A stretch of DNA of 18,960 bases from the IMG/VR virus record IMGVR_UViG_2585427767_000004; one strand, written 5' to 3'. Source of the stretch: a virus. Taxonomy: Duplodnaviria; Heunggongvirae; Uroviricota; Caudoviricetes. Shown piece by piece: positions 2,495 to 18,541 of this stretch. The position numbers were made by a program, and so were the translations under genes. The stretch's first letter is position 1. Every line of letters begins with the position of its first letter. The notes beneath the pieces were generated by a model that was not told the origin of the DNA, did no database searches, and saw nothing but the letters and a program-made list of their open reading frames with translations.

Positions 2495-3865
2495 ATGACT
2501 CTGAATGAATTTTCATCAACCACAGCATCTATTTTTGGTAATTTTGAAAAAATCATAAGAATGCTAAAAAGCATAAGTGACCCTAAATACATAACCGTTG
2601 CCAACAGAAGAAGCAAACTTTTGGGAAATATGTCCGAACATATTTCCATAATCAATAAATTCCATCCTTTCGCACATGCTGAATTCTTTACAAAAGAAGA
2701 AAAAGAAAATATCTTTTCACTACTAAAACTTACGGACAACTACATATCATCTATGATTTCTGATATTTTTTCAGATGATATTTATCGGAACATTATCACT
2801 ATCAATGATGATTTAATTAGGTATTCAAGAATATCTAAGTTTATCCAAGGCACGCATAATCAACCTAATACCTTAGCCATGTTCAAAAATCAAGCATCTA
2901 ATGAAATAGCCAAAGTGGTAGATCTGAAAAATGAAATTGAAATAAGTGCAACTCAAATCAGAGAGTTAGCAGTAAGAAATGCAAATTCTCATGATAAAAT
3001 CATTAAACTTGTTACGGACTTGAACGCCGAGACGAAAAAATTTGAAAGCGCCGGTTCTGAAATAGAATTCATACTAAAAAAGAGCAGAGATGCACTTATT
3101 GGTATAGAATCATCTAGTGAAAAGCTAAGAACTGTTGAAGAAACATTAAACAATATCGTTAATACAAACAAATCAATGCAAGACGAAATCATTAAAAAAT
3201 CTGCTGAGTCTGCCAGTGAGATTAAAAATCTCCTTGATAAAAAAAATGAAATTAAAGAATTAAAAACCATTATATCTGGTGAAATAAATAATGCGAAAGA
3301 ATTGAACTCTAAAGCTAATTCCGCATTGAATTTATCTGGAACATATAGGCTATCAAGACATTTTAGAGATGCATACAAAACCGCAAATAAAAACAAAAGG
3401 TTTTGGGCCTTTGTATCAATAGGAGCTGCAATCGTATGTATAGCATTCGTGGTTTATATGCTTGTCAAGATGAATGAAGTTAGTTCTTATCCTCCTACAG
3501 GCCAAGAGCCCAACTTATTATTATTATTCTTTGCTCGATTCTCAATGATTCCAGTATTAATAGGCTTCTTTGTATTTAGCGCCATACAATATGTTAAACA
3601 AAACAACATCAGTGAAGATTATGCGCATAAAAAATTGCTATCTGAAACTCTTGTATCTTTCAAGCAGGAAATCAATAAGAACGATACCGATAAATCATCA
3701 TTATTCATGGATAACATTCTTAAATCAGTATTAAGATCACCGCTTAGCTCCATAGACAAGAAGTCGCATCAAATGGAAATTGATAAAATAAACGAATTGA
3801 TTAATACGACATCTAAAATTAATAAAGAAATTATAGACCGCGTTTTGCCTGAGAAAGAGAAATAA
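2495..3865 (+). CDS. Hypothetical protein, 456 aa: coiled-coil-rich N-terminal domain, two predicted transmembrane helices, short C-terminal tail; candidate membrane effector (defence / superinfection exclusion); family not recognised
   Basis: Long uninterrupted ORF in a visibly AT-rich block, with ATG at 2495 and a weak GGA Shine-Dalgarno about 6 nt upstream. Residues about 309-330 (FWAFVSIGAAIVCIAFVVYMLV) and about 348-370 (LLLLFFARFSMIPVLIGFFVFSAI) are strongly hydrophobic. The N-terminal 300 aa are K/E/I/N-rich with heptad-like periodicity. No catalytic motif recognised. Confidence 0.8.
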   Translation: MTLNEFSSTTASIFGNFEKIIRMLKSISDPKYITVANRRSKLLGNMSEHISIINKFHPFAHAEFFTKEEKENIFSLLKLTDNYISSMISDIFSDDIYRNIITINDDLIRYSRISKFIQGTHNQPNTLAMFKNQASNEIAKVVDLKNEIEISATQIRELAVRNANSHDKIIKLVTDLNAETKKFESAGSEIEFILKKSRDALIGIESSSEKLRTVEETLNNIVNTNKSMQDEIIKKSAESASEIKNLLDKKNEIKELKTIISGEINNAKELNSKANSALNLSGTYRLSRHFRDAYKTANKNKRFWAFVSIGAAIVCIAFVVYMLVKMNEVSSYPPTGQEPNLLLLFFARFSMIPVLIGFFVFSAIQYVKQNNISEDYAHKKLLSETLVSFKQEINKNDTDKSSLFMDNILKSVLRSPLSSIDKKSHQMEIDKINELINTTSKINKEIIDRVLPEKEK

Positions 3866-4644: not shown

Positions 4645-5349
4645 TTTCAACTCCCGCCAGCCCACCAATCATGATTGGACGGTGTAAGGACAACACCAAA
4701 AAAACATGAAGTTAGCAGTCTCAGCGGAACACCGACCAGACGGTAAGCAGACAAAAAAGGATAAGCAAAGGAGCCGCAGTTCCCTAATGACACGAAAGCC
4801 CGCATTCTGATTAATTTGCTGTGCTTCACCTATCTCCATCAATAAAAACCATTCTTTTATAGCTTGTATATGCCAACTTGGCATGAATGCTTGTGATGAG
4901 TGAGGTGTGAAAGTTAGACGCAACATCCCCCTAGCGCCCACTCATTGCTATCGACGCCTTATTTTCAACATCAATGCAAATAGAAGTATGAAGATCGATG
5001 ATAGTAAACATTAGGTTAAAAAAACACGTAGTACTCTCCTTGGAGTATGAAGACGTTACTCACTTTAAGATTAGCATCCTCAAACCACTGTGAATTTGCT
5101 CCCATACGGAAAGAGGTGACTCAGACCTACAAAAATTTGTCAGGCCCGAAGGGTATCTTGCGCCAGCATAAAATACTGGATATAACCTAACTATTCATTT
5201 TAGCAATAGCCATTGCTTACGAGAGCTAGCTAATCTACGTAAATGCTAGGCATAACAGTGTCTTTAAAAGATATAGGTGGAATAAGTTCTGAAGTATGAG
5301 TGCTCTTCTTTTTCATCTATTCGTAATCAAAATGTGGATGTGATTGTTA

Positions 5350-8300
5350 ATGACAAATAAAAAAAATTTGAGTAATCCTTTTTCTACAGGCGGAGGCGGT
5401 GTTCATTTTGAAGCACATGTCCAAGCGTCTTTTGTTGCTCTAATGCTAACAGGCGGTAATGCACCTTGTCTTCCTTGTTGGCCCATAGTGGAGATAAATC
5501 TCCAGGGCAAGATTGATGGTTTTGATACCGACGACTTGATCGTCGTTGTTAAAGATTTCAACAGCAATGAAAAACGGAAGCTATTAGGACAAATAAAGCA
5601 TTCTATTTCATTTACGCAAGGTAATGCGATACTTGGGGAAGTTATACAGGCTGCTTGGAACGATTTCAACAATCCTGACTTGTTTACCAAGAACAAGGAT
5701 GTTATTGCACTGATCACCGGTCCGCTCAGTTCGACCGATACACACAATGTGCTCTGGTTATTGAATCAGGCTAGACACACAAAAACAGTCGATGAATTTT
5801 TGAGGAACGTTCAAAAAGCCAAGTTCAGCCCGCCTAAAAGTACTGAGAAACTGGAGGCCATCCAGTTTCATCTGAAGATGGCAAACAGTGGGAACGATTT
5901 AACAAACGATGAGCTTTATGACTTTTTGAACCATTTCCATTTACTAGGGTACGATCTGGGTAATGAATCAGGCGTCGTCCTTTCTTTGCTGCACTCCCAC
6001 ATAGCGCAATTCCATCAACAGTATCCTCAGTGGGTTTGGTCGCGGATAGTTGATATCGTACAAACTTGGAATAAAGATGCTGGCACTATCATTTCAAGTA
6101 AGCTACCTGAAGATCTTTTAGATGTTTTCAAACAAAGGGTTATTGCTGAAATACCTGAGAAGTTGAGGTTAGTACAACCGGTAGTCAAAACCGACTGGAC
6201 TCACCACCCAGATGCCTCTTATTTAGCCTTAGCAGTGTTGATTGGGCAATGGAATGATAAAAATGAGTGTGACCGAAATGTACTAACCCAATTGCTTGGT
6301 ATCAGCTATGACGAATGGCTAAGGAAGGCTCGAGAGATTTTACATAGCCCAGACAGTCCTTTGTCCCTAAAAAACGGCATTTGGAAAGTAACAAATCGAA
6401 TGGAGCTATGGAGTCTTCTTGGATCCCGCATTTTTGATCAGAATCTTGAATTGTTTAAGTCTTCCGCGATTTCCGTACTCAAAGAGCCAGACCCTGCTTT
6501 CGAATTACCTGCTGAAGAGCGTTACGCTGCTAGTATTCATGGTAAGGTGCTGAAGTTTTCATCCACGCTGCGACAAGGTATAGCAGAGGGTTTAGCCATA
6601 ATCGGGAGTCGGCCAGAGGTTTGCGTTAACTGCTCTCAGGGGAATGCTGAAACTTCCGTTAACGTCGCAATACATACAATTTTGACTGATGCAAACTGGG
6701 TTTTATGGGGTAGCCTAAACGGTTTGCTACCAACTTTGGCTGAAGCAGCTCCTGCAAAATTTCTTGATGCAGTTGAGAAGGCAATGCGTCAGACTCCTTG
6801 TGCATTTGATGAGCTTTTTTCTCAAGAAGTAAATGGTATCACTGGTGGTAATTATCTGACAGGACTGCTATGGGCTCTAGAAGAATTAGCCTGGGATGAG
6901 CAATACCTAGTACGCGTCTGTGTTGTACTGGCCGAACTTGCCAGCCACGATCCTGGGGGCAAGTGGGCTAATCGACCATCTAACTCGCTTACTACTATAT
7001 TATTACCGTGGTTTCCGCAAACGCTGGCATCTATAGAAAAACGAAAAGTTGCAGTCAACGTCATCTTGCAGGAATGGCCTGACATTGCCTGGAATTTACT
7101 CGTCCAGCTTCTACCCGGTCACCATCAAACCTCTTCTGGGTCACACAAGCCCTCTTGGCGCCGAATAATCCCAGATGATTGGGAAAGCAAAGTGACTAAT
7201 CAGGATTACTGGTTGCAGACATCTTTTTATGCTGAGCTTGCCGTCAAAAACGCCGGAGAAGATATCGAACGCCTTACCTTGTTGATTGATAATTTTGATG
7301 GCCTTCCATCTCCTGCTTTCGAACATCTTCTTAAGCACCTCTCTTCGGAAACAATTAATTGTCTTAATGAAGAGCAGCGAGTTGTAATTTGGGATCATCT
7401 TCATCGATTCGCAAATAAACATCGGCGATTCTCTAATGCTAATTGGGCTTTACCTGATGATCTGCTGACCAAAATCGAAAATGTTGCCGAGCAACTGGCA
7501 CCTACCAATCCATTCAACTTATATCAGCACCTTTTTTCAAATCGAGATTTTGATCTTTACTTAGAAAATGGCGATTGGGAAGAACGGAGAAATAAACTCG
7601 AATCAAGGCGCGAATCCGCAATATCAGAAATTCTTAAGCAAGATGGCGCAGAAGGCGTTATTCGATTTGCAGATCACGTTTCTGCGCCCCATCAAATAGG
7701 AAGTGTACTCGGCACTATCAACGATGATGTGTTCGAAAAACTTCTTTTGCCCCGTTTCCTCAATACAAAAGAAAATAAGTATAAGGCATTGGTAAGCGCT
7801 TTTATTTGGAAGCGTTTCTATCTCAAAGGCTGGGAGTGGTTCGACAATCTGGATAAAGCTGACTGGACTCCTGAACAGTTAGGCCAATTCTTTGCTTATC
7901 TGCCTTTTAACAAGGAGACCTGGACCCGAGTCTCTCATTATCCTCAAGCTTCCGAGAACGAATATTGGGCTCGCACCGATGCAAATCCTGACCTGGGTGA
8001 AGGTGACCTTACTAGTGCCATCGATAAGCTGATTGATCATGGCAGACCTCTTGCGGCAATCAATTGCCTGTGCAGGATGCATCAGACAAAGCAGCCAATC
8101 GATACTGAACAGTGTATCCGCGCTTTGCTTGCTGCCACTTCAACTAACGAATCTAGCTCCAACATGGATGGTTACAACATAACTACCCTTATCCAATTTC
8201 TTCAGACTGATCCCAAAGTGAATCCGGATAATCTTTTTCAGATCGAGTGGGCTTACCTTCCATTGCTCGATGGTCACCAAGATGCTGTGCCTAAGTTCCT

Positions 8301-8892
8301 TGAGAATAAAATGGCTAATGATCCAGAATTTTTCTGCGAAGTAATCCAACTCATTTATCGTTCTGACAAAGAAGACAATATGACAAGTGAACCAACAGAG
8401 GAATTGAAAGCAATCGCAAAAAATGCCTGGACTCTTTTGTACAACTGGAAGACACCGCCAGGAAGCCAATCAAATGGGACGTTCAACGGAGAACGCTTTA
8501 CTGAATGGCTTCAGAAAGTTAAGGAGGGTTCTACGGCATCAGGTCACCTGGACGTTGCACTCAGCAAAGTTGGTGAAGTCTTGATTTATACTCCCTCCGA
8601 ACCGAATGGCTTGTGGATAAACCGAGAGGTCGCAGCTGCTCTCAACGATCGAGATGCTGAGAGTATGCGCAGGGGCTACATGACAGGAGCCTACAACTCA
8701 CGAGGTGTTTATTGTGTTGACCCAACTGGAAAACCTGAGAGAGAGCTAGCTGACCAGTTCCGGGCAAAAGCAGAAGAAGTGGAAAACGCTGGTTTTCAGC
8801 GATTCGCCGTTACCTTAAGAGATTTAGCGGTTGGCTATGACCACGAAGCTGCACAGGTTATCAGCAATCTAAATATTGGAGAGGATGATTAA
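5350..8892 (+). CDS. Large hypothetical protein (about 1180 aa), no P-loop; family not recognised; candidate stand-alone defence or toxin protein
   Basis: Uninterrupted 3.5-kb ORF. The track starts at TTG 5344, but ATG 5350 (MTNKKNLSNPF...) is the more likely start. Moderately AT-rich compared with the tail genes. No Walker A (GxxxxGK[ST]) found on reading the translation. Gly-rich N-terminus (FSTGGGGVHFEAH), CxxC pairs (CLPC, CVNC), Trp-rich helical remainder. Putative terminator just downstream. Confidence 0.85.
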   Translation: MTNKKNLSNPFSTGGGGVHFEAHVQASFVALMLTGGNAPCLPCWPIVEINLQGKIDGFDTDDLIVVVKDFNSNEKRKLLGQIKHSISFTQGNAILGEVIQAAWNDFNNPDLFTKNKDVIALITGPLSSTDTHNVLWLLNQARHTKTVDEFLRNVQKAKFSPPKSTEKLEAIQFHLKMANSGNDLTNDELYDFLNHFHLLGYDLGNESGVVLSLLHSHIAQFHQQYPQWVWSRIVDIVQTWNKDAGTIISSKLPEDLLDVFKQRVIAEIPEKLRLVQPVVKTDWTHHPDASYLALAVLIGQWNDKNECDRNVLTQLLGISYDEWLRKAREILHSPDSPLSLKNGIWKVTNRMELWSLLGSRIFDQNLELFKSSAISVLKEPDPAFELPAEERYAASIHGKVLKFSSTLRQGIAEGLAIIGSRPEVCVNCSQGNAETSVNVAIHTILTDANWVLWGSLNGLLPTLAEAAPAKFLDAVEKAMRQTPCAFDELFSQEVNGITGGNYLTGLLWALEELAWDEQYLVRVCVVLAELASHDPGGKWANRPSNSLTTILLPWFPQTLASIEKRKVAVNVILQEWPDIAWNLLVQLLPGHHQTSSGSHKPSWRRIIPDDWESKVTNQDYWLQTSFYAELAVKNAGEDIERLTLLIDNFDGLPSPAFEHLLKHLSSETINCLNEEQRVVIWDHLHRFANKHRRFSNANWALPDDLLTKIENVAEQLAPTNPFNLYQHLFSNRDFDLYLENGDWEERRNKLESRRESAISEILKQDGAEGVIRFADHVSAPHQIGSVLGTINDDVFEKLLLPRFLNTKENKYKALVSAFIWKRFYLKGWEWFDNLDKADWTPEQLGQFFAYLPFNKETWTRVSHYPQASENEYWARTDANPDLGEGDLTSAIDKLIDHGRPLAAINCLCRMHQTKQPIDTEQCIRALLAATSTNESSSNMDGYNITTLIQFLQTDPKVNPDNLFQIEWAYLPLLDGHQDAVPKFLENKMANDPEFFCEVIQLIYRSDKEDNMTSEPTEELKAIAKNAWTLLYNWKTPPGSQSNGTFNGERFTEWLQKVKEGSTASGHLDVALSKVGEVLIYTPSEPNGLWINREVAAALNDRDAESMRRGYMTGAYNSRGVYCVDPTGKPERELADQFRAKAEEVENAGFQRFAVTLRDLAVGYDHEAAQVISNLNIGEDD

Positions 8893-9546: not shown

Positions 9547-10248
9547 TCAGATATCGTTTCGGGAAGTTGATAACAACTTTAATTCTGACTGAAGTTCATC
9601 AACTCTTTCTGTCAGTTTCTGGATATGGTGAATCAGTGGAACAACCAGACGTTCGTACATTACACCTTCGGCAACAAGGCCATTGCTGGAAATAGCTTCC
9701 GGTGCATCATCTTCGTTAGCTGGTCGCCAGTGTACAAACTGAGGGGCAATTTCTCCTACTTCCTCGGCAATCAATCCGTAGAATCCCCAGTCACGCCTGT
9801 CATTTTCGCATTGCGACCTGTACCACACAGGGCGCATCTTGAAAATGAGATCGGCGTGCTCTGAATCTATCGTCTCTACTGAATGTTTATAGCGAATAGA
9901 CGATGTTGACCGCAGTACAGACGAAATTGCGGGGTCAGGATTAAGATAAAGGTTTGCCGCCGCTGTAGTCGTGGCCAAATTCCATAAATAAAACGCTTCT
10001 CGACCTGTCAGCGGGTAAAAATCACCGCCATAACGACCGCTTTCCAGATCGTTCGCTTCCACTTTGTTTTTCAGCTTATTATCAACTTCAGTTTTTGTGT
10101 ATCTGGTGCTGATATCCTGCTTTGCACTGGTCATATCAGTCTGAAGCGTTGATACTTTTCCGTTAATTGAGGAAATATCTTCCTTAGCTTTACTGACATC
10201 TCCCTTTAGCGTGGTAATGTCTCCCGGAATTACTGTCGATGTAGCCAT
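9547..10248 (-). CDS. Tail fibre domain protein with C-terminal intramolecular chaperone (peptidase S74-like) domain
   Basis: N-terminal coiled-coil-like segment (GDITTLKGDVSKAKEDISSINGKVSTLQTDMTSAKQDIS) and C-terminal WGFYGLIAEEVGEIAPQFV...YERLVVPLIHHIQKLTERVDELQSEL, which matches the pattern I recall for endosialidase-chaperone-type C-terminal domains of phage fibres. Confidence 0.7.
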   Translation of the reverse strand: MATSTVIPGDITTLKGDVSKAKEDISSINGKVSTLQTDMTSAKQDISTRYTKTEVDNKLKNKVEANDLESGRYGGDFYPLTGREAFYLWNLATTTAAANLYLNPDPAISSVLRSTSSIRYKHSVETIDSEHADLIFKMRPVWYRSQCENDRRDWGFYGLIAEEVGEIAPQFVHWRPANEDDAPEAISSNGLVAEGVMYERLVVPLIHHIQKLTERVDELQSELKLLSTSRNDI

Positions 10249-10257
10249 TTTTCTTCC

Positions 10258-10539
10258 TCACATCCAGCCACGAAGTTGATGCTCAACAGCAACCACGTAT
10301 TCATCGAATATTGACAGTGTTTTCACATCATTAATGATGCGCACGTTTACAAAATATCCGTCTTCCTTAACACATACCGGTTCGCCATCTTCATTCAGTT
10401 CTCCGGTTTCTTTGTACACGTTACCTATCACGTCAATAAGAATATCATCCTGCATCGACTCGTCATCATAATAGCCAGTGCTATCCATAAAGGCCGAAAA
10501 GTCGGCCTTGTCTGCAAATTTAAGGGTTAAGTCTCTCAT
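10258..10539 (-). CDS. Hypothetical phage protein (93 aa), translationally coupled to stf
   Basis: Start codon overlaps the stf stop (ATGA overlap at 10536-10539). Acidic protein. Sits where lambda carries tfa but is shorter, and I do not recognise it as Tfa. Confidence 0.65.
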   Translation of the reverse strand: MRDLTLKFADKADFSAFMDSTGYYDDESMQDDILIDVIGNVYKETGELNEDGEPVCVKEDGYFVNVRIINDVKTLSIFDEYVVAVEHQLRGWM

Positions 10540-12596
10540 GATATTTTTTCTCCCATTTGTGTCTCGGTCAATTCTTTATGCCAGTTCCTAAAATTTCGAA
10601 TATGACCGAATAAGTGACGTTCACCCGTTGAAGTTTGCCCACCAAAACGAATGCTTGTATTCTTAGTTACATATCTCCACGCGGTTTTTTTAGGAACACT
10701 AGGAGGAATATCACCATTCAAAACAATATGAACACCATAATCTTTAGTAATTCTAAATCCAGCAACGAACTTTCTCTCTTTCGTTACCAGGTAACTATTA
10801 ACGCGTCCAGCATCTGCACCAACATCAATATAAGGGCTACCAGTATTTGCGGCAGTACCGCCACGGCAACCAAAAATAACGGCCTGGCCCGTTGGCACAC
10901 CGGAAAAATCCATTATACGTGGTGCTGCATTAGGAGGAAGTTCCCATTCCCAATTTCGATGAACTTCGGCTAAAATTGTAATAGGTGCGTCATACATATT
11001 ATTCTTAACAGGAATGTTAACCAAATCACTAGCGCGGGTAGCTGGTACGTCGTTAGTTATGATTAATGATGTTGCATGAGAACATTTCTCTACCTGAGCG
11101 GTTGCCGCCTTTATGTAATTTCCTGCGACCAATTCGCCGCCACTTTTAGCAAGCATTTCAGTACGAGCATAAACGCTCATATCTTCGGTAGCTTTAAATG
11201 TCGATTGGAAAAAATACCATCCACTAGCAGGATCATAATCAACGCGACTAGACAAAACATCACTAACTAGTTTAGCGGTATCAAGATCCAACATAGCATC
11301 AGCAATAAATGTGTTTCCGTTCCCGTCATCATTTAATTTTGAAATACGATGGCGAGCGCGACAACCAGCCCCCTTAACACGAATAGATATAGTAACATAT
11401 TCACCACCAACAACTGGAATCACACGGGATGTCCCAGTAGAAATCAACGTAACTGGCCCAGTGTCGGATGATTCTTTATAAGTGAATGTTGCTTGAGTAA
11501 AACCAAATTCATCAATAGAGTTTTCACTAACAGATAGACGGTTTGTATTTCTGTTCCAGTTCGCTGGTGAGTTACTATTAATAAAGTTATTAGTCGTAGT
11601 ACCTTCAATCAACAAACCATTTTTTTCGAAGCGTGGTTCGTCAATTGCAGCCTCCGTCAGTACACCAGATTTGTTAATGTAGGTTGCTTTCGATGCGCGT
11701 TTAAACTTTACAACCTTATCGCCAGGCATTGTTATTTCATCATCACCAATAACAATCTTTTTATATGATGGCGAAAAGCCCGTAATCATATCCAGTGAAT
11801 CGTTAAACGGTATCCACACATCGGGAAGCGGCTGCAAAACTTGTTTATACGGCTCCGCAGCCTGGCTTGCATACTCTCTGGCTGCGTCTTCACTTGCTTT
11901 AGCTGCTGTCTGGCTTGCTGCCGATGCTTTCGCCGAGTTCGCCGCCGCTGTTTCGCTCGCCTTTGCGTTGTTTTCACTGGTTTTTGCTGCTTTTTGGCTG
12001 TTGGCTGATGCAGTGGCAGAAATAGCCGCCTCGCTTGCAGATCCGGCTGCGGCACTCTCGCTTTCAGCTGCTGCATCCTGACTGTTTTTCGCCGCAGTTT
12101 CGCTGGCTTTAGCGTTCGTTTCGCTGGTCTTCGCTACCGTCTGGCTGGACTTTGCGTTAGTTTCGCTCGTCTTCGCTGCTTTCTGGCTGTTAGCAGCTGC
12201 AGTTTCGGATTTCTTTGCCGCCGCTGCGCTCTGAGAGGCGGCTTCAGCGTTGCGTGCTGCTTCTTCCACCATTGCCTCAAAACGACGCAATGCCTCCGGC
12301 ATGACATCATCTTCCGTCATGGCACCGAGAAAATCATTCAGCGTACCAGGTCTGGAACCTTCATAGACGGTAATGGTTCCGGCATGTGAAGGCGGAAAAC
12401 CTTCAACCAGCAGGGTGACGCTGTACTGGCCATGCTCAACATCCATGCTGTAACTCCCGGCTTCATCCGGATTTTCAGAGGCCACCGTGTTCACCAGTAC
12501 CGTGGTGCTGTTACGCTTTGCTTTGAGCTGAATAGTGCAGTTCTGTATTGGTTTTCCTGCACCGTCTTTCAGCACGCCTGAAATCTGTACTGCCAT
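10536..12596 (-). CDS. stf: Side tail fibre protein (lambda Stf-like) with Ala/Ser/Thr-rich repeat shaft and a distinct C-terminal domain
   Basis: N-terminus MAVQISGVLKDGAGKPIQNCTIQLKAKRNSTTVLVNTVASENPDEAGSYSMDVEHGQYSVTLLVEGFPPSHAGTITVYE closely resembles the lambda Stf N-terminus as I recall it. Start placed at ATG 12596 with GGAG 5 nt upstream; the track start at 12602 is an in-frame GTG. Confidence 0.9.
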   Translation of the reverse strand: MAVQISGVLKDGAGKPIQNCTIQLKAKRNSTTVLVNTVASENPDEAGSYSMDVEHGQYSVTLLVEGFPPSHAGTITVYEGSRPGTLNDFLGAMTEDDVMPEALRRFEAMVEEAARNAEAASQSAAAAKKSETAAANSQKAAKTSETNAKSSQTVAKTSETNAKASETAAKNSQDAAAESESAAAGSASEAAISATASANSQKAAKTSENNAKASETAAANSAKASAASQTAAKASEDAAREYASQAAEPYKQVLQPLPDVWIPFNDSLDMITGFSPSYKKIVIGDDEITMPGDKVVKFKRASKATYINKSGVLTEAAIDEPRFEKNGLLIEGTTTNNFINSNSPANWNRNTNRLSVSENSIDEFGFTQATFTYKESSDTGPVTLISTGTSRVIPVVGGEYVTISIRVKGAGCRARHRISKLNDDGNGNTFIADAMLDLDTAKLVSDVLSSRVDYDPASGWYFFQSTFKATEDMSVYARTEMLAKSGGELVAGNYIKAATAQVEKCSHATSLIITNDVPATRASDLVNIPVKNNMYDAPITILAEVHRNWEWELPPNAAPRIMDFSGVPTGQAVIFGCRGGTAANTGSPYIDVGADAGRVNSYLVTKERKFVAGFRITKDYGVHIVLNGDIPPSVPKKTAWRYVTKNTSIRFGGQTSTGERHLFGHIRNFRNWHKELTETQMGEKIS
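11855..12270 (-). repeat. Tandem short repeats inside stf encoding an (A)KTSETNAKAS-like Ala/Ser/Thr-rich shaft
   Basis: Protein residues about 112-250 consist of reiterated AAKTSETNAK / SQKAAKTSE / ASETAAKNS units; the DNA shows corresponding reiterated GCTTTAGC/GTTTCGCT/GTCTTCGC blocks. Confidence 0.55.
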
Positions 12597-12610
12597 ATTC
12601 ACTCCACAAA

Positions 12611-12656: not shown

Positions 12657-15600
12657 TCAACGGATACTGATACCGGAAGCAGCTTTTTTGGTCACAATCA
12701 CTGTACAGTCTGTGATGTTACCTGCGCCCTGATTGCCTTTCTGGAAAACCTTAAACTCCAGAGTGACGCTTCCCCTGCCACTCGGCATATCAATAACCGC
12801 ACTGTAGCTACCGGGAATGGCCCCTTTAGTTTCTCTGGATGCGATTAATACACCGTTTTTGCGAACTTCAAAACCATAACCCGTGTATCTTGTACCTCCC
12901 GGGTTATTACCACTTCCCGGATCGCTATACGCTATTCCGTTAAAGATAATGGGCGGAATAATGATTTGACGGTCAAAGTTATGATCATCGCTGATGGTGA
13001 CTGTAACCGTCCCGTTTGGTGTTTCCGTATTACCCCACGTACCAGCCTGTTTCGGGAATGATTTGGATACAGCTTTAACGAAGTCACCTCTGACCTGAGT
13101 CGCCTCCAGCATGCCCTTAATCGTACAGTTTTCATTTACCGTGACATTGTTGAACGTCCCGGCGTTCGCATTCACACTGCCACTGATATCCGCATTTTTA
13201 GCGGTCAGCTTTCCGTCTGATGTCAGGGAAAATGCCGGTGGATTTCCACCACTGGTAATGGTCGGGGCCGTCAGGCGCTTCAGGAACACGTCGTTCATAA
13301 ATATCTGATTGCCCTGCGCCACAAACATCGGCGTTTCATTCCCGTTTGCCGGGTCAATAAACGCGATACGGTTAGCGGCAACCAGAAACTGGCTCAGCTT
13401 GCCTTCTTCCGTGTCCTCCATGCTGAGGCCAATACCCGCGACATAATGTTTGCCGTCTTTGGTCTGCTCAATTTTGACGCCCCACATGGCATTCCACTTA
13501 TCGTTAGCGTCCTGCCACTCTTTCGAAAACTCCTCCAGTTTGCTGGCGTTATCCTCCGTCAGCTCGACTTTTTCCAGCAGCTCCTTGCCGAGATGGGATT
13601 CGGTTATCTGGCCTTTGAAAAAATCCAGGTAACCTTCCGCATCATCGCTCGCCTGACCGACAGCCTCCACGAATGCCGATTTGCCAACGGTGTTCACACT
13701 GCGGATATAAAAGTAATAATCATGGCCCGGTTTGATATTGATACTGGCGGCTATCCAGTACATCCCCGTGCCAAGATAGCGGGCTGTGGTTTCAACCTGC
13801 CTGATATCCGCAATCCGTTTTTCCGAGAACCAGAACTCAAACTGTACCGTCGGGTCATAAACCGCAAGATGCGGCGTGGCGGTTATCTGAAAATAGCCCG
13901 GTGTCAGCTCAATCCGAGACGGCGCTGCCGGTGCGGCAATCCGGAACGATACCGATGCCGGATCGCCCTGCTGTCCCCACGCATTTACCGCCCGGACTGT
14001 CAGCCTGTAGTTCCCCAGCGCCAGTTGCGTGAAGCGGTATGTGGTTTCCGCCGTCCGGGCCGTGCTGACCAGCCGCTCACTGCCGTCATCCGCTGCCACG
14101 GTCAGGCGAAGCATGAAACTCACGCCCTTCACCACCTTCGGCGTGTCCCAGCGGGCCAGCACCTGGTATTCCCCACTGTCTGCGGTGACTTCGGCAGTCA
14201 GGTGCTGCACCGCTGGCGGCGTGACACCATTCACCGTGCCGCTCTGGTCGCCGTCAAAGTGCGCCCCGTTATCCACGATGGCTTCTTTTTCCGGTACATG
14301 CTGCACGGCGGTGATGGCATACGTGCCGTCGTCGTTCTCACGGATACTCACGCAGCGGAACAGGCGCTGGCGCAGCGTCGGCAGCTTCAGCCCCCACACG
14401 CTGTATTCAGCAACGCCGTCAGGAACACGGCTCACTTTCACCTTCACGCCGTCGGTGACGGACTGAACCTCCACGCTGACCGGATTGCCACTTCCGTCAA
14501 CCAGGCTTATCAGCGTGGTACCGGAGGATGGCAGCGTGATTTCACGGTCGAGCGTCAGCGTCCGGGTCTGGCTGTTTACCGCCAGCACGCGCCCGCCGGT
14601 GCTGATACCGGCATAGTCATCATCACAGATTTCAATGACATCGCCCGGCACATGGCGAAGCCCTTCGGCACCCACGCTGAAGTCCACCGTCTGCGTTTCC
14701 AGCAGCTCCGTTTTAATCAGCCACAGCCCGGCGCGGTGTGCCTGCCCCCGGCTGGTACAGCCAAAGGCATCCATCTTCGTGACGTTACGACCGTAACGGG
14801 CAATGGCCTGCGAGTCCTCCACAAGCTCTGTTGCCGTCTCCCAGCCGTTATCCGGGTCAATCCAGTTCACCTCAACGGCATTATGGCGGTCTTTCAGGGC
14901 GCTGAAGCTGTAGCGGAACGGCGCGCCATCATCCGGCATCACCACATTACTGCGGTTATAGGTCCACACCTTATCCGACGGTCGGTCCTGCACGAACGTC
15001 AGCGTCTGCCCGTTCCATACCGGCATACAGCGCATCGCCGAGCAGAAATCACTGAGCACATCCCACGCCTTGCGCTGTGTGGTCAGGTATGCATTACAGG
15101 TGATGCGCGGCTCCGTGCCGCCAAAGCCGTCCGGTACTGACTGGTCGCAGTACTGGCCGATGACATACAGCGCCCATTTGTCCACATCCGCCGCACCAAG
15201 ACGTTTCCCCATGCCGTAGCGTGGATGGGTCAGCATATCCCACAGACACCAGGCCATGTTGTTGCTGTATGCCGGTTTAAACGTTCCGTCCCAGATACCG
15301 CTGTATTGCCGCGTCTGCGGGTTATAGTTCGACGGCACCTGCAGAATGCGCCCGCGAAGATGATAATTACGGCTCACCTGCTGGCTGCCGAACTGCTCCG
15401 AATCCACCTGTACGCCGACCAGTGCCGTGTTCGGGTAGCACTGTTTCACATCGATGATTTCGGTGTATGACGACCAGAGCGTTTTGTTCTGCAGCTGGTC
15501 TGTGGTGCTGTCCGGTGTCATCCTGCGCATCCGGATATTGAACGGGCGCGGCGGCAGGTTATCCACCACCACCGAGGCCAGATACTGCGAGGTGGTTTTG

Positions 15601-16070
15601 CCCTTAATGGTGATGTCTTTTTCCGTCACCCAGCCACCGTTACGCTGTATCTGAACCAGCAGGCGGACTTCCGACGGATTCCTGTCTCCCTTTGAGGTGG
15701 TTTCCACCAGTGCCTGTACACCGAAGGTAAAGCGCAGACGGTCGATGTTTGCCGACGTGATGGTCCGGGTGATCGGCGTGTCATATTTCACTTCCGTACC
15801 CAGCACCGTCTCGGAGCCGGAGGATTCAAATCCCTCCGGCGGTGACTGCTCCTGCTCACCGGCCCGGAACACCACCGTGACGCCGGAGATGTTGGTATTC
15901 CCCTCAGTGTCCAGCACCGGCGTACTGTTCAGCAGCACACTTTTTAATCCCTCCACCGGACCTTCAACCGGCCCTTCGCTGATGGCATCGATCACACTCA
16001 GCAACTGCGTGGACTTCAGGTTGTCCTTCGCTTCGCGCGGGGTATGCCCCTTACTGCTGCCTTTACCCAT
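12657..16070 (-). CDS. J: Host specificity protein J (central tail fibre / tip attachment protein)
   Basis: 1137-aa protein beginning [34 protein letters not shown], colinear with lambda J as I recall it over most of its length. The C-terminal roughly 130 aa (from about [20 protein letters not shown]) appear different. GGAG ribosome-binding site upstream. Confidence 0.95.
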
Positions 16071-16130: not shown

Positions 16131-16778
16131 TCAGCGACCAATCACCACAACCTGACCACCGTCCCCTTCGTCTGCCGTGCTGATCTCCTGAGAAACCACG
16201 CGTGACCCCACGCGCATTTCCCCGTACAGAACAGGCAGAACATTGCCCTGGGCAACCATGTTATCCAGTGAGGAGAAATACGTGTTCTGTTTGCCGTTAT
16301 CCGTTGTCTGTGTGCGGGGAGTTCTGGCTTTCGGTGCCAGCATCTGCGCCACACCGCCCAGGATCATACTGGCCCCTGCCGCATACATGCCCGATACAGC
16401 CGCGGCACCCAGCCAGCCCACAGGGTTCCACCATGCCACCGCAATCAGCGCAGCCCCCAGCACTGCCTGAAAAACACCGCCACTTTTGGCACCCGCCAGA
16501 CGCGGTACGATGTGGATCACGGCACCATTTGCCAGCGGCTCATTAAGACGGGCAGATAATTCGTTTTCGCCTGCATCACGCCCGGCAATGCGCACCTGAT
16601 ACCAGCCCTCATTCAGTTTCTGACGAAACGCCGGGAGCTGCGTGGCCAGCGCCCGGATAGCTTCGGCTCCCGTTTTCACACGAAGGTCGATGCGGTGGCC
16701 AAATCGTTGCAAATCCCCGTAAAGGCAGATGCGTGCCATGCCCGGTGACGCCAGAGGGAGTGTGTGCGTCGCTGCCAT
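16131..16778 (-). CDS. I: Tail assembly protein I
   Basis: MAATHTLPLASPGMARICLYGDLQRFG... with C-terminal ...KQNTYFSSLDNMVAQGNVLPVLYGEMRVGSRVVSQEISTADEGDGGQVVVIGR, matching lambda gpI as recalled; position between K and J. Confidence 0.9.
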   Translation of the reverse strand: MAATHTLPLASPGMARICLYGDLQRFGHRIDLRVKTGAEAIRALATQLPAFRQKLNEGWYQVRIAGRDAGENELSARLNEPLANGAVIHIVPRLAGAKSGGVFQAVLGAALIAVAWWNPVGWLGAAAVSGMYAAGASMILGGVAQMLAPKARTPRTQTTDNGKQNTYFSSLDNMVAQGNVLPVLYGEMRVGSRVVSQEISTADEGDGGQVVVIGR

Positions 16779-17419
16779 TTGTCGGTATACCTCTCTCGTT
16801 TGCTCAGTTGTTCAGGAATATGGTGCAGCAGCTCGCCGTCGCCGCAGTAAATGGCGGCATGATTCGGCACCGATGAACCAAAGCAGCACAGCAGCACATC
16901 GCCCGGCTGCGCCTCTGTCAGTGCGGCACGGTAAAAACCAGTCGCCTCCATATTGTCAAGATAGAGATTCTGGCCGTTACGCCACCAGTCATCCCCGCGA
17001 TGAAAATCCGGCATCTCAATTCCCGCCAGATGGTAAGCGTCCCGGAACAGCGTGTAACAGTCCGTCACCCCGTGCTCAAAGCGCCGCCCGGTGAGATGCG
17101 GCACACAGCGGAACTTATGAATCGCCCCGCGGCAGACCAGCCACCACGGCAAATCACTCTGCACCTGCAGCCGCCGGTCGGCCTCACTCAGCCAGGGCAG
17201 ACCACCGGGGTGGCTGTGGACCAGCGCCACAATCTCACCCTGCATCTCTGCCTGCAGCCAGCCCTCCGGAGCCATCCGGAAATACTCCTCCGGCTCACCG
17301 GAAATATTCACGCAGGGAAAATATCTTTCCCCCTCCGGCGTTCTCACCACGAAGCCGCACGACTCCGCTGGCGCACATCGCCGGGCGTGCGCCAGAATCG
17401 CTGATTCTGTCTCTGTCAT
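16676..17419 (-). CDS. K: Tail assembly protein K (JAB/MPN metalloprotease-like plus NlpC/P60-like domains)
   Basis: MTETESAILAHARRCAPAESCGF...; JAMM-type motif HSHPGGLPWLSEAD (HxH-x7-S-x2-D) is visible. ORF overlaps the start of I by about 100 nt in a different frame. Confidence 0.9.
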   Translation of the reverse strand: MTETESAILAHARRCAPAESCGFVVRTPEGERYFPCVNISGEPEEYFRMAPEGWLQAEMQGEIVALVHSHPGGLPWLSEADRRLQVQSDLPWWLVCRGAIHKFRCVPHLTGRRFEHGVTDCYTLFRDAYHLAGIEMPDFHRGDDWWRNGQNLYLDNMEATGFYRAALTEAQPGDVLLCCFGSSVPNHAAIYCGDGELLHHIPEQLSKRERYTDKWQRRTHSLWRHRAWHASAFTGICNDLATASTFV

Positions 17420-17424
17420 GGGAT

Positions 17425-17968
17425 TTACTGCGAAAGTTTGTTAATGGAAAGGAAGCCGCCAAAGTTGCCGACGTTATTGCGGAACTTACAGCCGCTCAGG
17501 CATTTGCTGCATTTATCCTTCGTGATATCGGATGTTGGCTGGTCATATTCATCCGCGACAGCCGGACCGCTATAACCGCACTCATCACCGCGATAGGTCC
17601 AGGTGCAGGTGTTGGCCAGCATGATACGTCCCGGAAAAACAGCGCCATCCGTTTCCGTCGGTGTGGACAACACAAAGGAGGCACTTACCGCGCTCAGTTC
17701 GCTGCACTGCTCAATGCGCCAGCGGCTGATCACCTCCTGCTCTGGATCGGCGTCGCTGTTTCCGTTGACGAAGTTCACCGCATCCAGAAAACGGGCATAA
17801 ACCTTACGCCTGACCACCGTTCCGCCGACCAGACTCTGCAGGTCTTCCGCCATCCCGGTGACCATACCGTACAGGTTAGAAACCGTCAGCATGGGGCGCG
17901 TACTGGTGCCTTTGCCATTCAGTTCGAAACCACTCCCCTGAATGGGATACGCCTGATACTGTCGCCCC
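17425..17968 (-). pseudogene. L: Minor tail protein L, 5'-truncated by IS insertion
   Basis: From ...GRQYQAYPIQGSGFELNGKGTSTRP to the C-terminal ...GNFGGFLSINKLSQ resembles lambda gpL. The first codons of the track ORF (MSNIWGAVQ, 17969..17994) are encoded by the IS left end, and the expected N-terminal roughly 50 residues of L are absent from this side. Confidence 0.8.
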
Positions 17969-18010
17969 TGAACTGCACCCCAAATGTTGGACATAATCTG
18001 ACATCTGAAG

Positions 18011-18541
18011 GTGCAGTTTATGAAACATTCATTTGAAGTAAAACTTGCCGCTGTAAATCATTACCTGGCTGGTCATGCAGGCATCATTTCTACGGCAAAA
18101 CTCTTTCAACTTTCTCACACCAGCCTCTCACACTGGATTAATCTTTTTCTTCTTCACGGTCCTCGGGCACTGGATTGCAGACACAAGCGTAGCTATTCTC
18201 CTGAAGATAAACTTTGCGTGGTTCTTTATGCTCTCGGGCATTCTGAGTCTCTACCCCGGGTAGCTGCCCGGTTTAACATTCCCAGCCACAACACGGTTAA
18301 AAACTGGATAAAAGGCTACCGCAAATCTGGTAATGAGGCCTTTATCAGGCGCAGGAAGGAGAAAAGCATGACCCGTTCTGATGATACCCATGAAAACGAG
18401 GCAAACATGACGCCGGAAGAGATGAAGAATGAGCTGCGTTATCTTCGCGCAGAAAATGCATATCTGAAAGCCATGCAGGAGCATCTCCTGGAAAAAAAGC
18501 GCCAGGAGCTGGAGAAAAAACGAAAGTCATCCGGAGCCTGA
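18011..18541 (+). CDS. IS3-family transposase OrfA (HTH DNA-binding component)
   Basis: 176-aa ORF with helix-turn-helix-like N-terminus and a leucine-zipper-like C-terminus (ELRYLRAENAYLKAMQEHLLEKK). The true start may be ATG 18020 (MKHSFEVKLAAVNHY). Confidence 0.85.
   Translation: MQFMKHSFEVKLAAVNHYLAGHAGIISTAKLFQLSHTSLSHWINLFLLHGPRALDCRHKRSYSPEDKLCVVLYALGHSESLPRVAARFNIPSHNTVKNWIKGYRKSGNEAFIRRRKEKSMTRSDDTHENEANMTPEEMKNELRYLRAENAYLKAMQEHLLEKKRQELEKKRKSSGA
18493..18499 (+). promoter_or_regulatory. Programmed -1 ribosomal frameshift site (A AAA AAG) for OrfAB fusion
   Basis: Heptamer A-AAA-AAG in the orfA zero frame at 18493-18499, with orfB open in the -1 frame from here on. Confidence 0.6.

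Follow-up and report, generated by a model that had tools for sequence, protein, structure and literature searches.

The 103-nt out-of-frame overlap of tail genes K and I in a lambda-like prophage: a conserved junction with two classes of predicted I start

The K-I junction in lambda, in its relatives and in the window

In the RefSeq record of phage lambda (NC_001416), the tail genes K (14276..14875) and I (14773..15444) share 103 nt, and a 103-nt overlap is also annotated in phage 21, in Stx2a_WGPS2, in phiSTEC1575-Stx2k and in a PGAP-annotated E. coli prophage with 99.3% identity to the DNA studied here. In N15, the T1-like phages (Drexlerviridae) and Dhillonvirus, K and I are homologous, adjacent and usually overlapping, but the K tail is shorter and the overlaps, of 1-26 nt, are of the stop/start coupling type (1 nt in N15, 8 nt in KLB28, 8 nt in LittleDog, 10 nt in bov11C2, 20 nt in DTL, 20 nt in SECphi27 and 26 nt in SegesCirculi). 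The same operon holds another pair of tail-assembly frames overlapping in the -1 register, G/G-T of lambda, which needs a slippery heptamer and makes a fusion. As to function, Iyer et al. (2006) predict that K, through its JAB domain, cuts I at the C-terminal Gly of the ubiquitin-like domain and so releases that domain (PMC1779556). Cryo-EM of lambda virions resolved only residues 134/135-223 of gpI, gpK being absent (PMC10721106, PMC12617516), and only the C-terminal part of the F-pyocin homologue PA0640 is likewise visible (bioRxiv 10.64898/2026.02.24.707460). A literature search brought up nothing specific on the K/I overlap, on its ribosome profiling or on the extra G at lambda 14266 that is described below.

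The window, i.e. the whole stretch of 18 960 nt analysed here, carries these genes in the order L-K-I-J, all on the minus strand, at 17425-17994 (Phage_tail_L), 16676-17419, 16131-16778 and 12657-16070 (GpJ domains). The original prediction, made from the letters of this DNA, had noted an out-of-frame overlap of about 100 nt between K and I, and the ORF list confirms it: the common stretch, 16676-16778 on the minus strand, measures 103 nt, that is 100 coding nt plus the TGA of K. Gene I is read in the -1 frame relative to K, with position 1 of its codons falling on K position 3. The features of the region are:

17419 to 16676 (16676..17419), minus strand: gene K, tail tip assembly protein K, 247 aa (ORF list)
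17126-17410, minus strand: JAB/MPN domain of K, aa 4-98 (PF14464, E = 1.2e-13)
16748-17089, minus strand: NlpC/P60 domain of K, aa 111-224 (PF00877, E = 2.7e-12)
Minus strand, after the NlpC/P60 domain: C-terminal tail of K, 23 aa
16790..16797, minus strand: Shine-Dalgarno-like GAGAGAGG for I, within the K codons R-E-R
16131..16778, minus strand: gene I, tail tip assembly / plug protein I, 215 aa (ORF list), laid out as a 13-aa leader, a ubiquitin-like domain, a Gly-rich hydrophobic linker and a C-terminal plug domain
16676..16778, minus strand: K/I overlap, I codons 1-34 and K codons 214-247 plus stop
16776..16778, minus strand: ATG1, the proposed I start, in which the final A of K codon 214 (AAA) is followed by the TG of Trp215
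16745..16765, minus strand: K motif T-H-S-L-W-R-H, the conserved end of the NlpC/P60 domain
16737..16739, minus strand: ATG14, second in-frame ATG of I, equivalent to the I start of Pasteurellaceae and Budvicia
16488-16739, minus strand: ubiquitin-like domain of I (Lambda_tail_I), aa 14-97 (PF06805, match from residue 14)
16698..16721, minus strand: I motif Y-G-D-L-Q-R-F-G, overprinted on T-G-I-C-N-D-L-A of the K tail
16676..16678, minus strand: K stop codon, TGA

In every sequence-level feature that we tested, the pair fits the lambda-type TAPK/TAPI. In a 10-sequence alignment the K columns E19, H68, H70, S78, D81, C121, H187 and H200 (catalytic) are invariant, and the JAB and NlpC catalytic residues of the window K are intact. 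The window I matches the lambda gpI chain 8iyk_I over its full length (E = 1.6e-108), its C-terminal part matches 9e7m, and it has the Gly-rich motif …AGAKSGG…. Window and lambda share gene order, the 103-nt overlap, the start context and the K stop. They differ in that I has 215 aa in the window and 223 aa in lambda gpI (79% identity), because the Gly-rich hydrophobic linker is not the same, in that K is an intact 247-aa ORF in the window but 199 aa in the reference lambda record, and in that the window prophage, unlike lambda, is truncated in L by an IS element. We consider it very likely that the window shows the K-I junction in its usual form for a lambda-type tail operon (L'-K-I-J), where two real genes share 103 nt and I starts at ATG1.

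This reading draws on conservation, because it would be no great surprise for a second frame to stay open over about 45 codons (probability of roughly 0.1 in random sequence, by our estimate). Alignment of K and I with lambda and close homologues, proposed in the original prediction, revealed a nearly identical junction DNA with an equal 103-nt overlap; over 233 columns, the window, lambda, phage 21, 569R4 and Ayreon have a mean column identity of 97%. The comparison was widened by 160 loci, 80 being close relatives in IMG/VR and 80 coming from contigs of one genome per species (45-94% K identity); in 115 fetched loci, 89 of them unique, both the junction and the frames are equal to those of the window. 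The gpI chains deposited in the PDB begin MAATHTLPLASPGMAR…. Megablast finds the K-I stretch in 4408 of 5426 complete E. coli genomes (median copy number per genome, 3); as a DNA match only, this count tells how common the K-I module is and says nothing of the frames. It had been stated beforehand that homologues with the same overlap and lengths would make the overlap ordinary, and lambda, phage 21, phiSTEC1575, Stx2a_WGPS2 and the PGAP-annotated E. coli prophage are such homologues. Judged by these comparisons, the K/I overlap is an ordinary and already known feature of the lambda type, and appears to involve no sequencing or annotation error.

Constraint on the two reading frames

Among the 89 unique lambda-like sequences, which were aligned without gaps, diversity at K position 3 drops from 0.175 in the 240 nt upstream of the overlap to 0.033 inside it, and diversity at I position 3 is 0.349 in the 240 nt downstream as against 0.067 inside. 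Since local mosaicism adds to regional differences in close relatives, the test was repeated on a divergent set, made of 13 representatives from seven genera of the larger class of loci (class A, see next section). Identity at I position 3 is then 0.86, 0.75 and 0.72 for codons 1-10, 11-20 and 21-30, and 0.33-0.44 thereafter, with a mean of 0.73 for codons 2-34 vs 0.38 for codons 35-110 (Mann-Whitney p = 6e-10). For K position 3, it is 0.53-0.73 in the last 40 codons vs 0.33-0.56 upstream, the means being 0.60 and 0.42 (p = 1.5e-4). A like step in wobble conservation is seen in the second class of loci (class B), over about 20 codons, which matches the shorter overlap there. There is thus purifying selection in both frames of the overlap.

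The constraint is not evenly spread. In the 13 divergent sequences, the K wobble positions under the I motif YGDLQRFG, i.e. the end of beta-strand 1 and the next loop of the ubiquitin-like domain, are invariant, whereas those under I leader codons 4-13 vary at background level (0.29-0.62). The K motif T-H-S-L-W-R-H, read in the I frame, corresponds to leader residues about 5-12 (…LPLASP…), and the wobble positions of I in the leader are K position 2, fixed by the K motif THSxWRH. With the K wobble free and the I wobble fixed in this way, the 13-residue leader would be mostly a passenger of K: residues 1-13 of I are probably weakly constrained and largely dictated by THSxWRH. From I residue 14 on, both proteins appear to constrain the DNA, so that the ubiquitin-like domain and the K tail would limit one another. 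K/I is in this respect a clean small case of two proteins restricting each other's codons, and one that opens no new question.

The partners are also a predicted enzyme-substrate pair, in which the JAB/NlpC peptidase K would act on the ubiquitin-like domain of I. Removal of that domain by K is a prediction, and it is consistent with the resolution of only gpI residues 134/135-223 in the virion. The overlap would hold K and I physically inseparable and make them hard to part by recombination, and it may likewise influence their stoichiometry.

Start codon and ribosome-binding site of I

The loci fall into two classes with respect to the I start. Class A comprises the lambda and Stx types of Escherichia as well as Citrobacter, Edwardsiella, Morganella, Proteus, Providencia and Xenorhabdus, and taking its first usable ATG as the start makes the overlap 97-106 nt long. 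The residues R-E precede ATG1 in 51 of 52 unique class A K tails, mostly encoded as CGN GAG A/G, which places a GAGG/GAGA motif 10-13 nt 5' of ATG1; in a few unique tails the Arg codon is AGR. In the window itself, the GAGGT of the Shine-Dalgarno-like site ends 10 nt 5' of ATG1, and the I frame opens only 33 nt 5' of ATG1, with no ATG, GTG or TTG in those 33 nt. In the divergent class A set (13 sequences), neither the G of the GAG before ATG1 nor the A of ATG1 varies, even though the K codon that the latter closes may be AAA, TCA, CGA or AGA (Lys, Ser or Arg).

In class B, a sister group (Pasteurellaceae, Budvicia, Limnobaculum, Zophobihabitans, Oceanimonas and Oceanisphaera), K and I again overlap out of frame over a long stretch, I being read in the -1 frame relative to K, and the ribosome-binding site again sits inside K codons. 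It differs from the window in that stop codons block the I frame upstream; I begins at the equivalent of Met14, 39-42 nt further downstream than in class A, and the overlap is 55-67 nt. The site is now TGGAG(A/G), supplied by the K codons W-R, and stands 8-10 nt 5' of the ATG: the Arg codon is AGA or AGG in 24/24 genuine cases (the single exception, L121, has a K truncated at a contig end). In class A the SxWR Arg is CGN in 52/52 unique K tails, so that no ribosome-binding site precedes ATG14; in the window, ATG14 follows CTCTGGCGTCACCGGGC, without such a site. The codon is CGG in three non-overlapping sequences of Mannheimia type. A putative ribosome-binding site hence stands before whichever ATG is usable. 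As the classes follow clades, this pattern does not amount to a set of independent events. The two-class picture of the predicted I start, with its matching switch of the ribosome-binding site, is the modest addition of the present work. It yields simple rules for annotators: in lambda- and Proteus-type loci, GAGG followed by ATG 10-13 nt on, with an overlap of about 100 nt; in Pasteurellaceae-type loci, TGGAGR, then ATG, with an overlap of about 60 nt.

These data point to translation of I starting most likely de novo at ATG1 (16778), by means of the GAGG-type site in the K codons R-E-R, while ribosomes on K would run 34 more codons past the I start and stop at 16676. Translational coupling had been put forward for an overlap of this size; classical termination-reinitiation does not fit, because the K stop lies 100 nt 3' of the I start, and a stop near the start is found only in distant relatives, e.g. 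N15 and KLB28. Initiation at I would then be independent of termination on K. The idea that RNA structure hides the I start was also considered and dropped: a single script-based fold of the native sequence from -70 to +50 around ATG1 (MFE -25.5 kcal/mol) gave no sign of sequestration, the probability of being unpaired being about 0.56-0.60 for the ribosome-binding site and AUG1 vs 0.53 overall.

Not everything speaks for ATG1. The spacing of 10-13 nt from ribosome-binding site to ATG1 is at the long end of the workable range and counts against it. Furthermore, ATG14 could contribute in the genomes that keep it, the window included, because the Pfam model and distant homologues begin at residue 14 and the leader is little constrained. 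One possibility, which we regard as rather unlikely, is that gpI exists as two isoforms, with and without the 13-residue leader, in the lambda/Citrobacter/Edwardsiella lineage that has kept both ATG1 and ATG14. Were it true, the isoform ratio could follow ribosome traffic on K, and recognition or processing by K could differ between the forms. The N-terminal peptide would be (M)AATHTLPLASPGMAR from ATG1 and (M)ARICLYGDLQR from ATG14; the N-terminal tryptic peptide of gpI is absent from the mass-spectrometry table of PMC10721106, which has a single gpI peptide. A more modest reading is that the leader records a shift of the I start by 39-42 nt upstream, into the most conserved K motif, and that the ribosome-binding site switched with it from TGGAGR to GAGAGG.

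Another possibility is that I truly starts at ATG14 (16739), ATG1 being only a by-product of an A before the conserved Trp215 codon of K. We judge this quite unlikely. It would agree with the beginning of the Pfam Lambda_tail_I domain at residue 14, with distant homologues that align from residues 14-17, with the use of exactly that start in the Pasteurellaceae and Budvicia relatives, and with leader codons 4-13 adding almost no constraint to K wobble positions. However, in the 52/52 class A sequences the required ribosome-binding site is missing, and the A of ATG1 stays fixed while the K residue switches between Lys, Ser and Arg. Moreover, Leu stands in place of Met14 in Stx-type loci and in most of those from Morganella, Proteus, Providencia and Xenorhabdus (Met14 persists in one Providencia locus). 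This leaves ATG1 there as the only ATG placed for a complete I N-terminus and, scattered non-conserved TTG codons aside, as the only start codon that spares beta-strand 1. It is the only in-frame start codon of any kind in Stx2a_WGPS2 and, save for scattered non-conserved TTG codons, in the Morganella, Proteus and Providencia relatives. Even a start at ATG14 would leave an out-of-frame overlap of 64 nt. For the same reasons, i.e. the conservation of ATG1, the pattern of ribosome-binding sites and the lack of another start codon in several relatives, a mis-set I start, as had been envisaged at first, is unlikely.

The K tail, public annotations and the state of the prophage

The original prediction had also raised a frame change that gave K a C-terminal extension, and an uncorrected indel. 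In a broader form, the overlap would be an artefact, either of such an event or of an I start that really lies at TTG23 or GTG34 (overlap 37 or 4 nt); annotators do disagree, a TTG start being given for vB_EcoS-569R4 and a GTG start for Ayreon. Against the first variant stands the K tail. In the 10-sequence alignment, the conserved core of K ends …THSxWR(H/Y), with R224 invariant, and the lambda-type K goes on for about 21 more residues (AWHASAFTGICNDLATASTFV). This tail is found in about 40 Enterobacterales and Pasteurellales prophages, and its protein sequence (…WRHRAWHASAFTGICNDLATASTFV) is conserved even in relatives whose K is only about 46% identical. Mannheimia phage 1152AP2 has it as well: its K carries the recognisable lambda-type tail …LDFDGILNDIAVNN, ends …WRHKLADKLDFDGILNDIAVNN and stops 268 nt before I. 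Lineages in which K and I lie apart keep this tail at the protein level, so neither a frame change nor an indel in the window can explain it, and both proposals are excluded. Against the second variant, TTG23 is TTA in lambda, phage 21 and Ayreon, a start at codon 23 or 34 would delete beta-strand 1 and YGDLQRFG, the best-conserved part of I, and position-3 conservation of I sets in at codon 1. Given in addition the equal frames and lengths in the 115 loci and in the lambda reference, an artefact seems to us highly improbable. A programmed -1 frameshift in the overlap, giving a K-I fusion as in lambda G/G-T, has the right frame relation and recalls the rare prophages with TAPI fused to a JAB protein (Iyer et al., PMC1779556), but we give it practically no weight since the K frame has neither a canonical nor a relaxed X XXY YYZ heptamer from the opening of the I frame to the K stop, I has its own conserved start codon and ribosome-binding site, and no fusion product has been reported. 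The remaining proposal, that the overlap is genuine, is thus borne out by frames conserved in lambda and its relatives, as the only one to survive. In practice, a lambda-like K/I overlap should be annotated as it is, with a K of 247 aa and I from the first ATG, and not 'repaired'; in lambda-like prophages it is no evidence of an indel.

The separation of K from I in other phages is due to small extra ORFs, seen in Mannheimia 1152AP2, in the HK97-like mEp234 and in Proteus Pm34; these regions lie at 963-1198 of our locus L006 (the Mannheimia phage), 915-1139 of L009 and 629-1129 of L008. In Mannheimia 1152AP2, a predicted terminator is also present between the two genes, and the usual overlap is broken. 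A different deviation occurs in Morganella psychrotolerans DI-3 (L141, about 2124-2508), where the K frame misses its usual stop and continues into I for about another 285 nt; this prophage copy seems to have lost the stop codon or to carry an indel.

Public annotations of the I start differ between near-identical phages, namely ATG1 (103 nt overlap), TTG23 (37 nt) and GTG34 (4 nt). Examples are ON470598 (L002, 1038-1619) and MF807953 (L004, 1072-1620 and 476-1075), which have differing I starts and a K of 247 or 199 aa. The short versions delete conserved parts, i.e. the ubiquitin-like domain of I or the JAB domain of K. The two-class picture of the I start accounts for the inconsistent public I starts.

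The short K of lambda has a separate origin. Compared with seven independent lambda-identical contigs and all relatives, NC_001416 is without one G after lambda 14266 (about position 1267 of the locus). The seven contigs (L104, L106, L107, L109, L113, L115 and L117) differ from the lambda reference at this one position in 2701 nt, and the extra G is also present in phage 21 and phiSTEC1575. The missing G splits K, which is why lambda K is annotated with 199 aa (start 14276) and a truncated JAB domain; with the extra G, lambda K has 247 aa and starts 5 nt after L. The +G at 14266 is presumably also listed in notes on commercial lambda DNA. An apparent long K ORF in the lambda reference, with an alignment from residue 17, turned out to be tblastn reading through a stop codon.

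Many short lambda or lambda-like contigs, often at about 1x coverage where coverage is given, turned up in assemblies of unrelated organisms (Neobacillus, Pseudoxanthomonas, Shewanella, Bradyrhizobium, Paenibacillus, Kitasatospora, etc.): L104-L117, L121, L122, L124, L125, L129, L132, L148, L157 and L159. They are almost certainly laboratory lambda DNA contamination and not prophages of those species; the seven that we compared are identical to the lambda reference apart from the one base.

As to the prophage of the window, L is cut at its 5' end: only nt 154-699 of lambda L align, to window positions 17970-17425. Directly upstream of the remnant, positions 18011-18541 hold, on the plus strand, the orfA of an IS-type transposase (HTH_28/HTH_Tnp_1). 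Because the IS element truncates L and everything upstream of L is lost, this E. coli-type prophage is defective, and with L truncated its late operon may have ceased to express K and I. The K ATG (17419-17417) comes 5 nt after the L stop TAA (17427-17425) and has no recognisable Shine-Dalgarno sequence before it (…GCAGTAAATCCCATG). With a 5-nt gap and no such site, translation of K looks coupled to termination of L, whereas I has its own internal site. At the other end of the window, an integrase ORF occupies 1-702 (Integrase_1/Phage_int_SAM_2); its Pfam match reaches the last residue at model position 132/149. The tail-fibre genes are at 10536-12602 (phage_tail_N) and 9547-10248 (Peptidase_S74 chaperone domain), and between them and the integrase lies cargo, with ORFs at 2495-3865 (456 aa) and 5344-8892 (1182 aa) that have no Pfam match.
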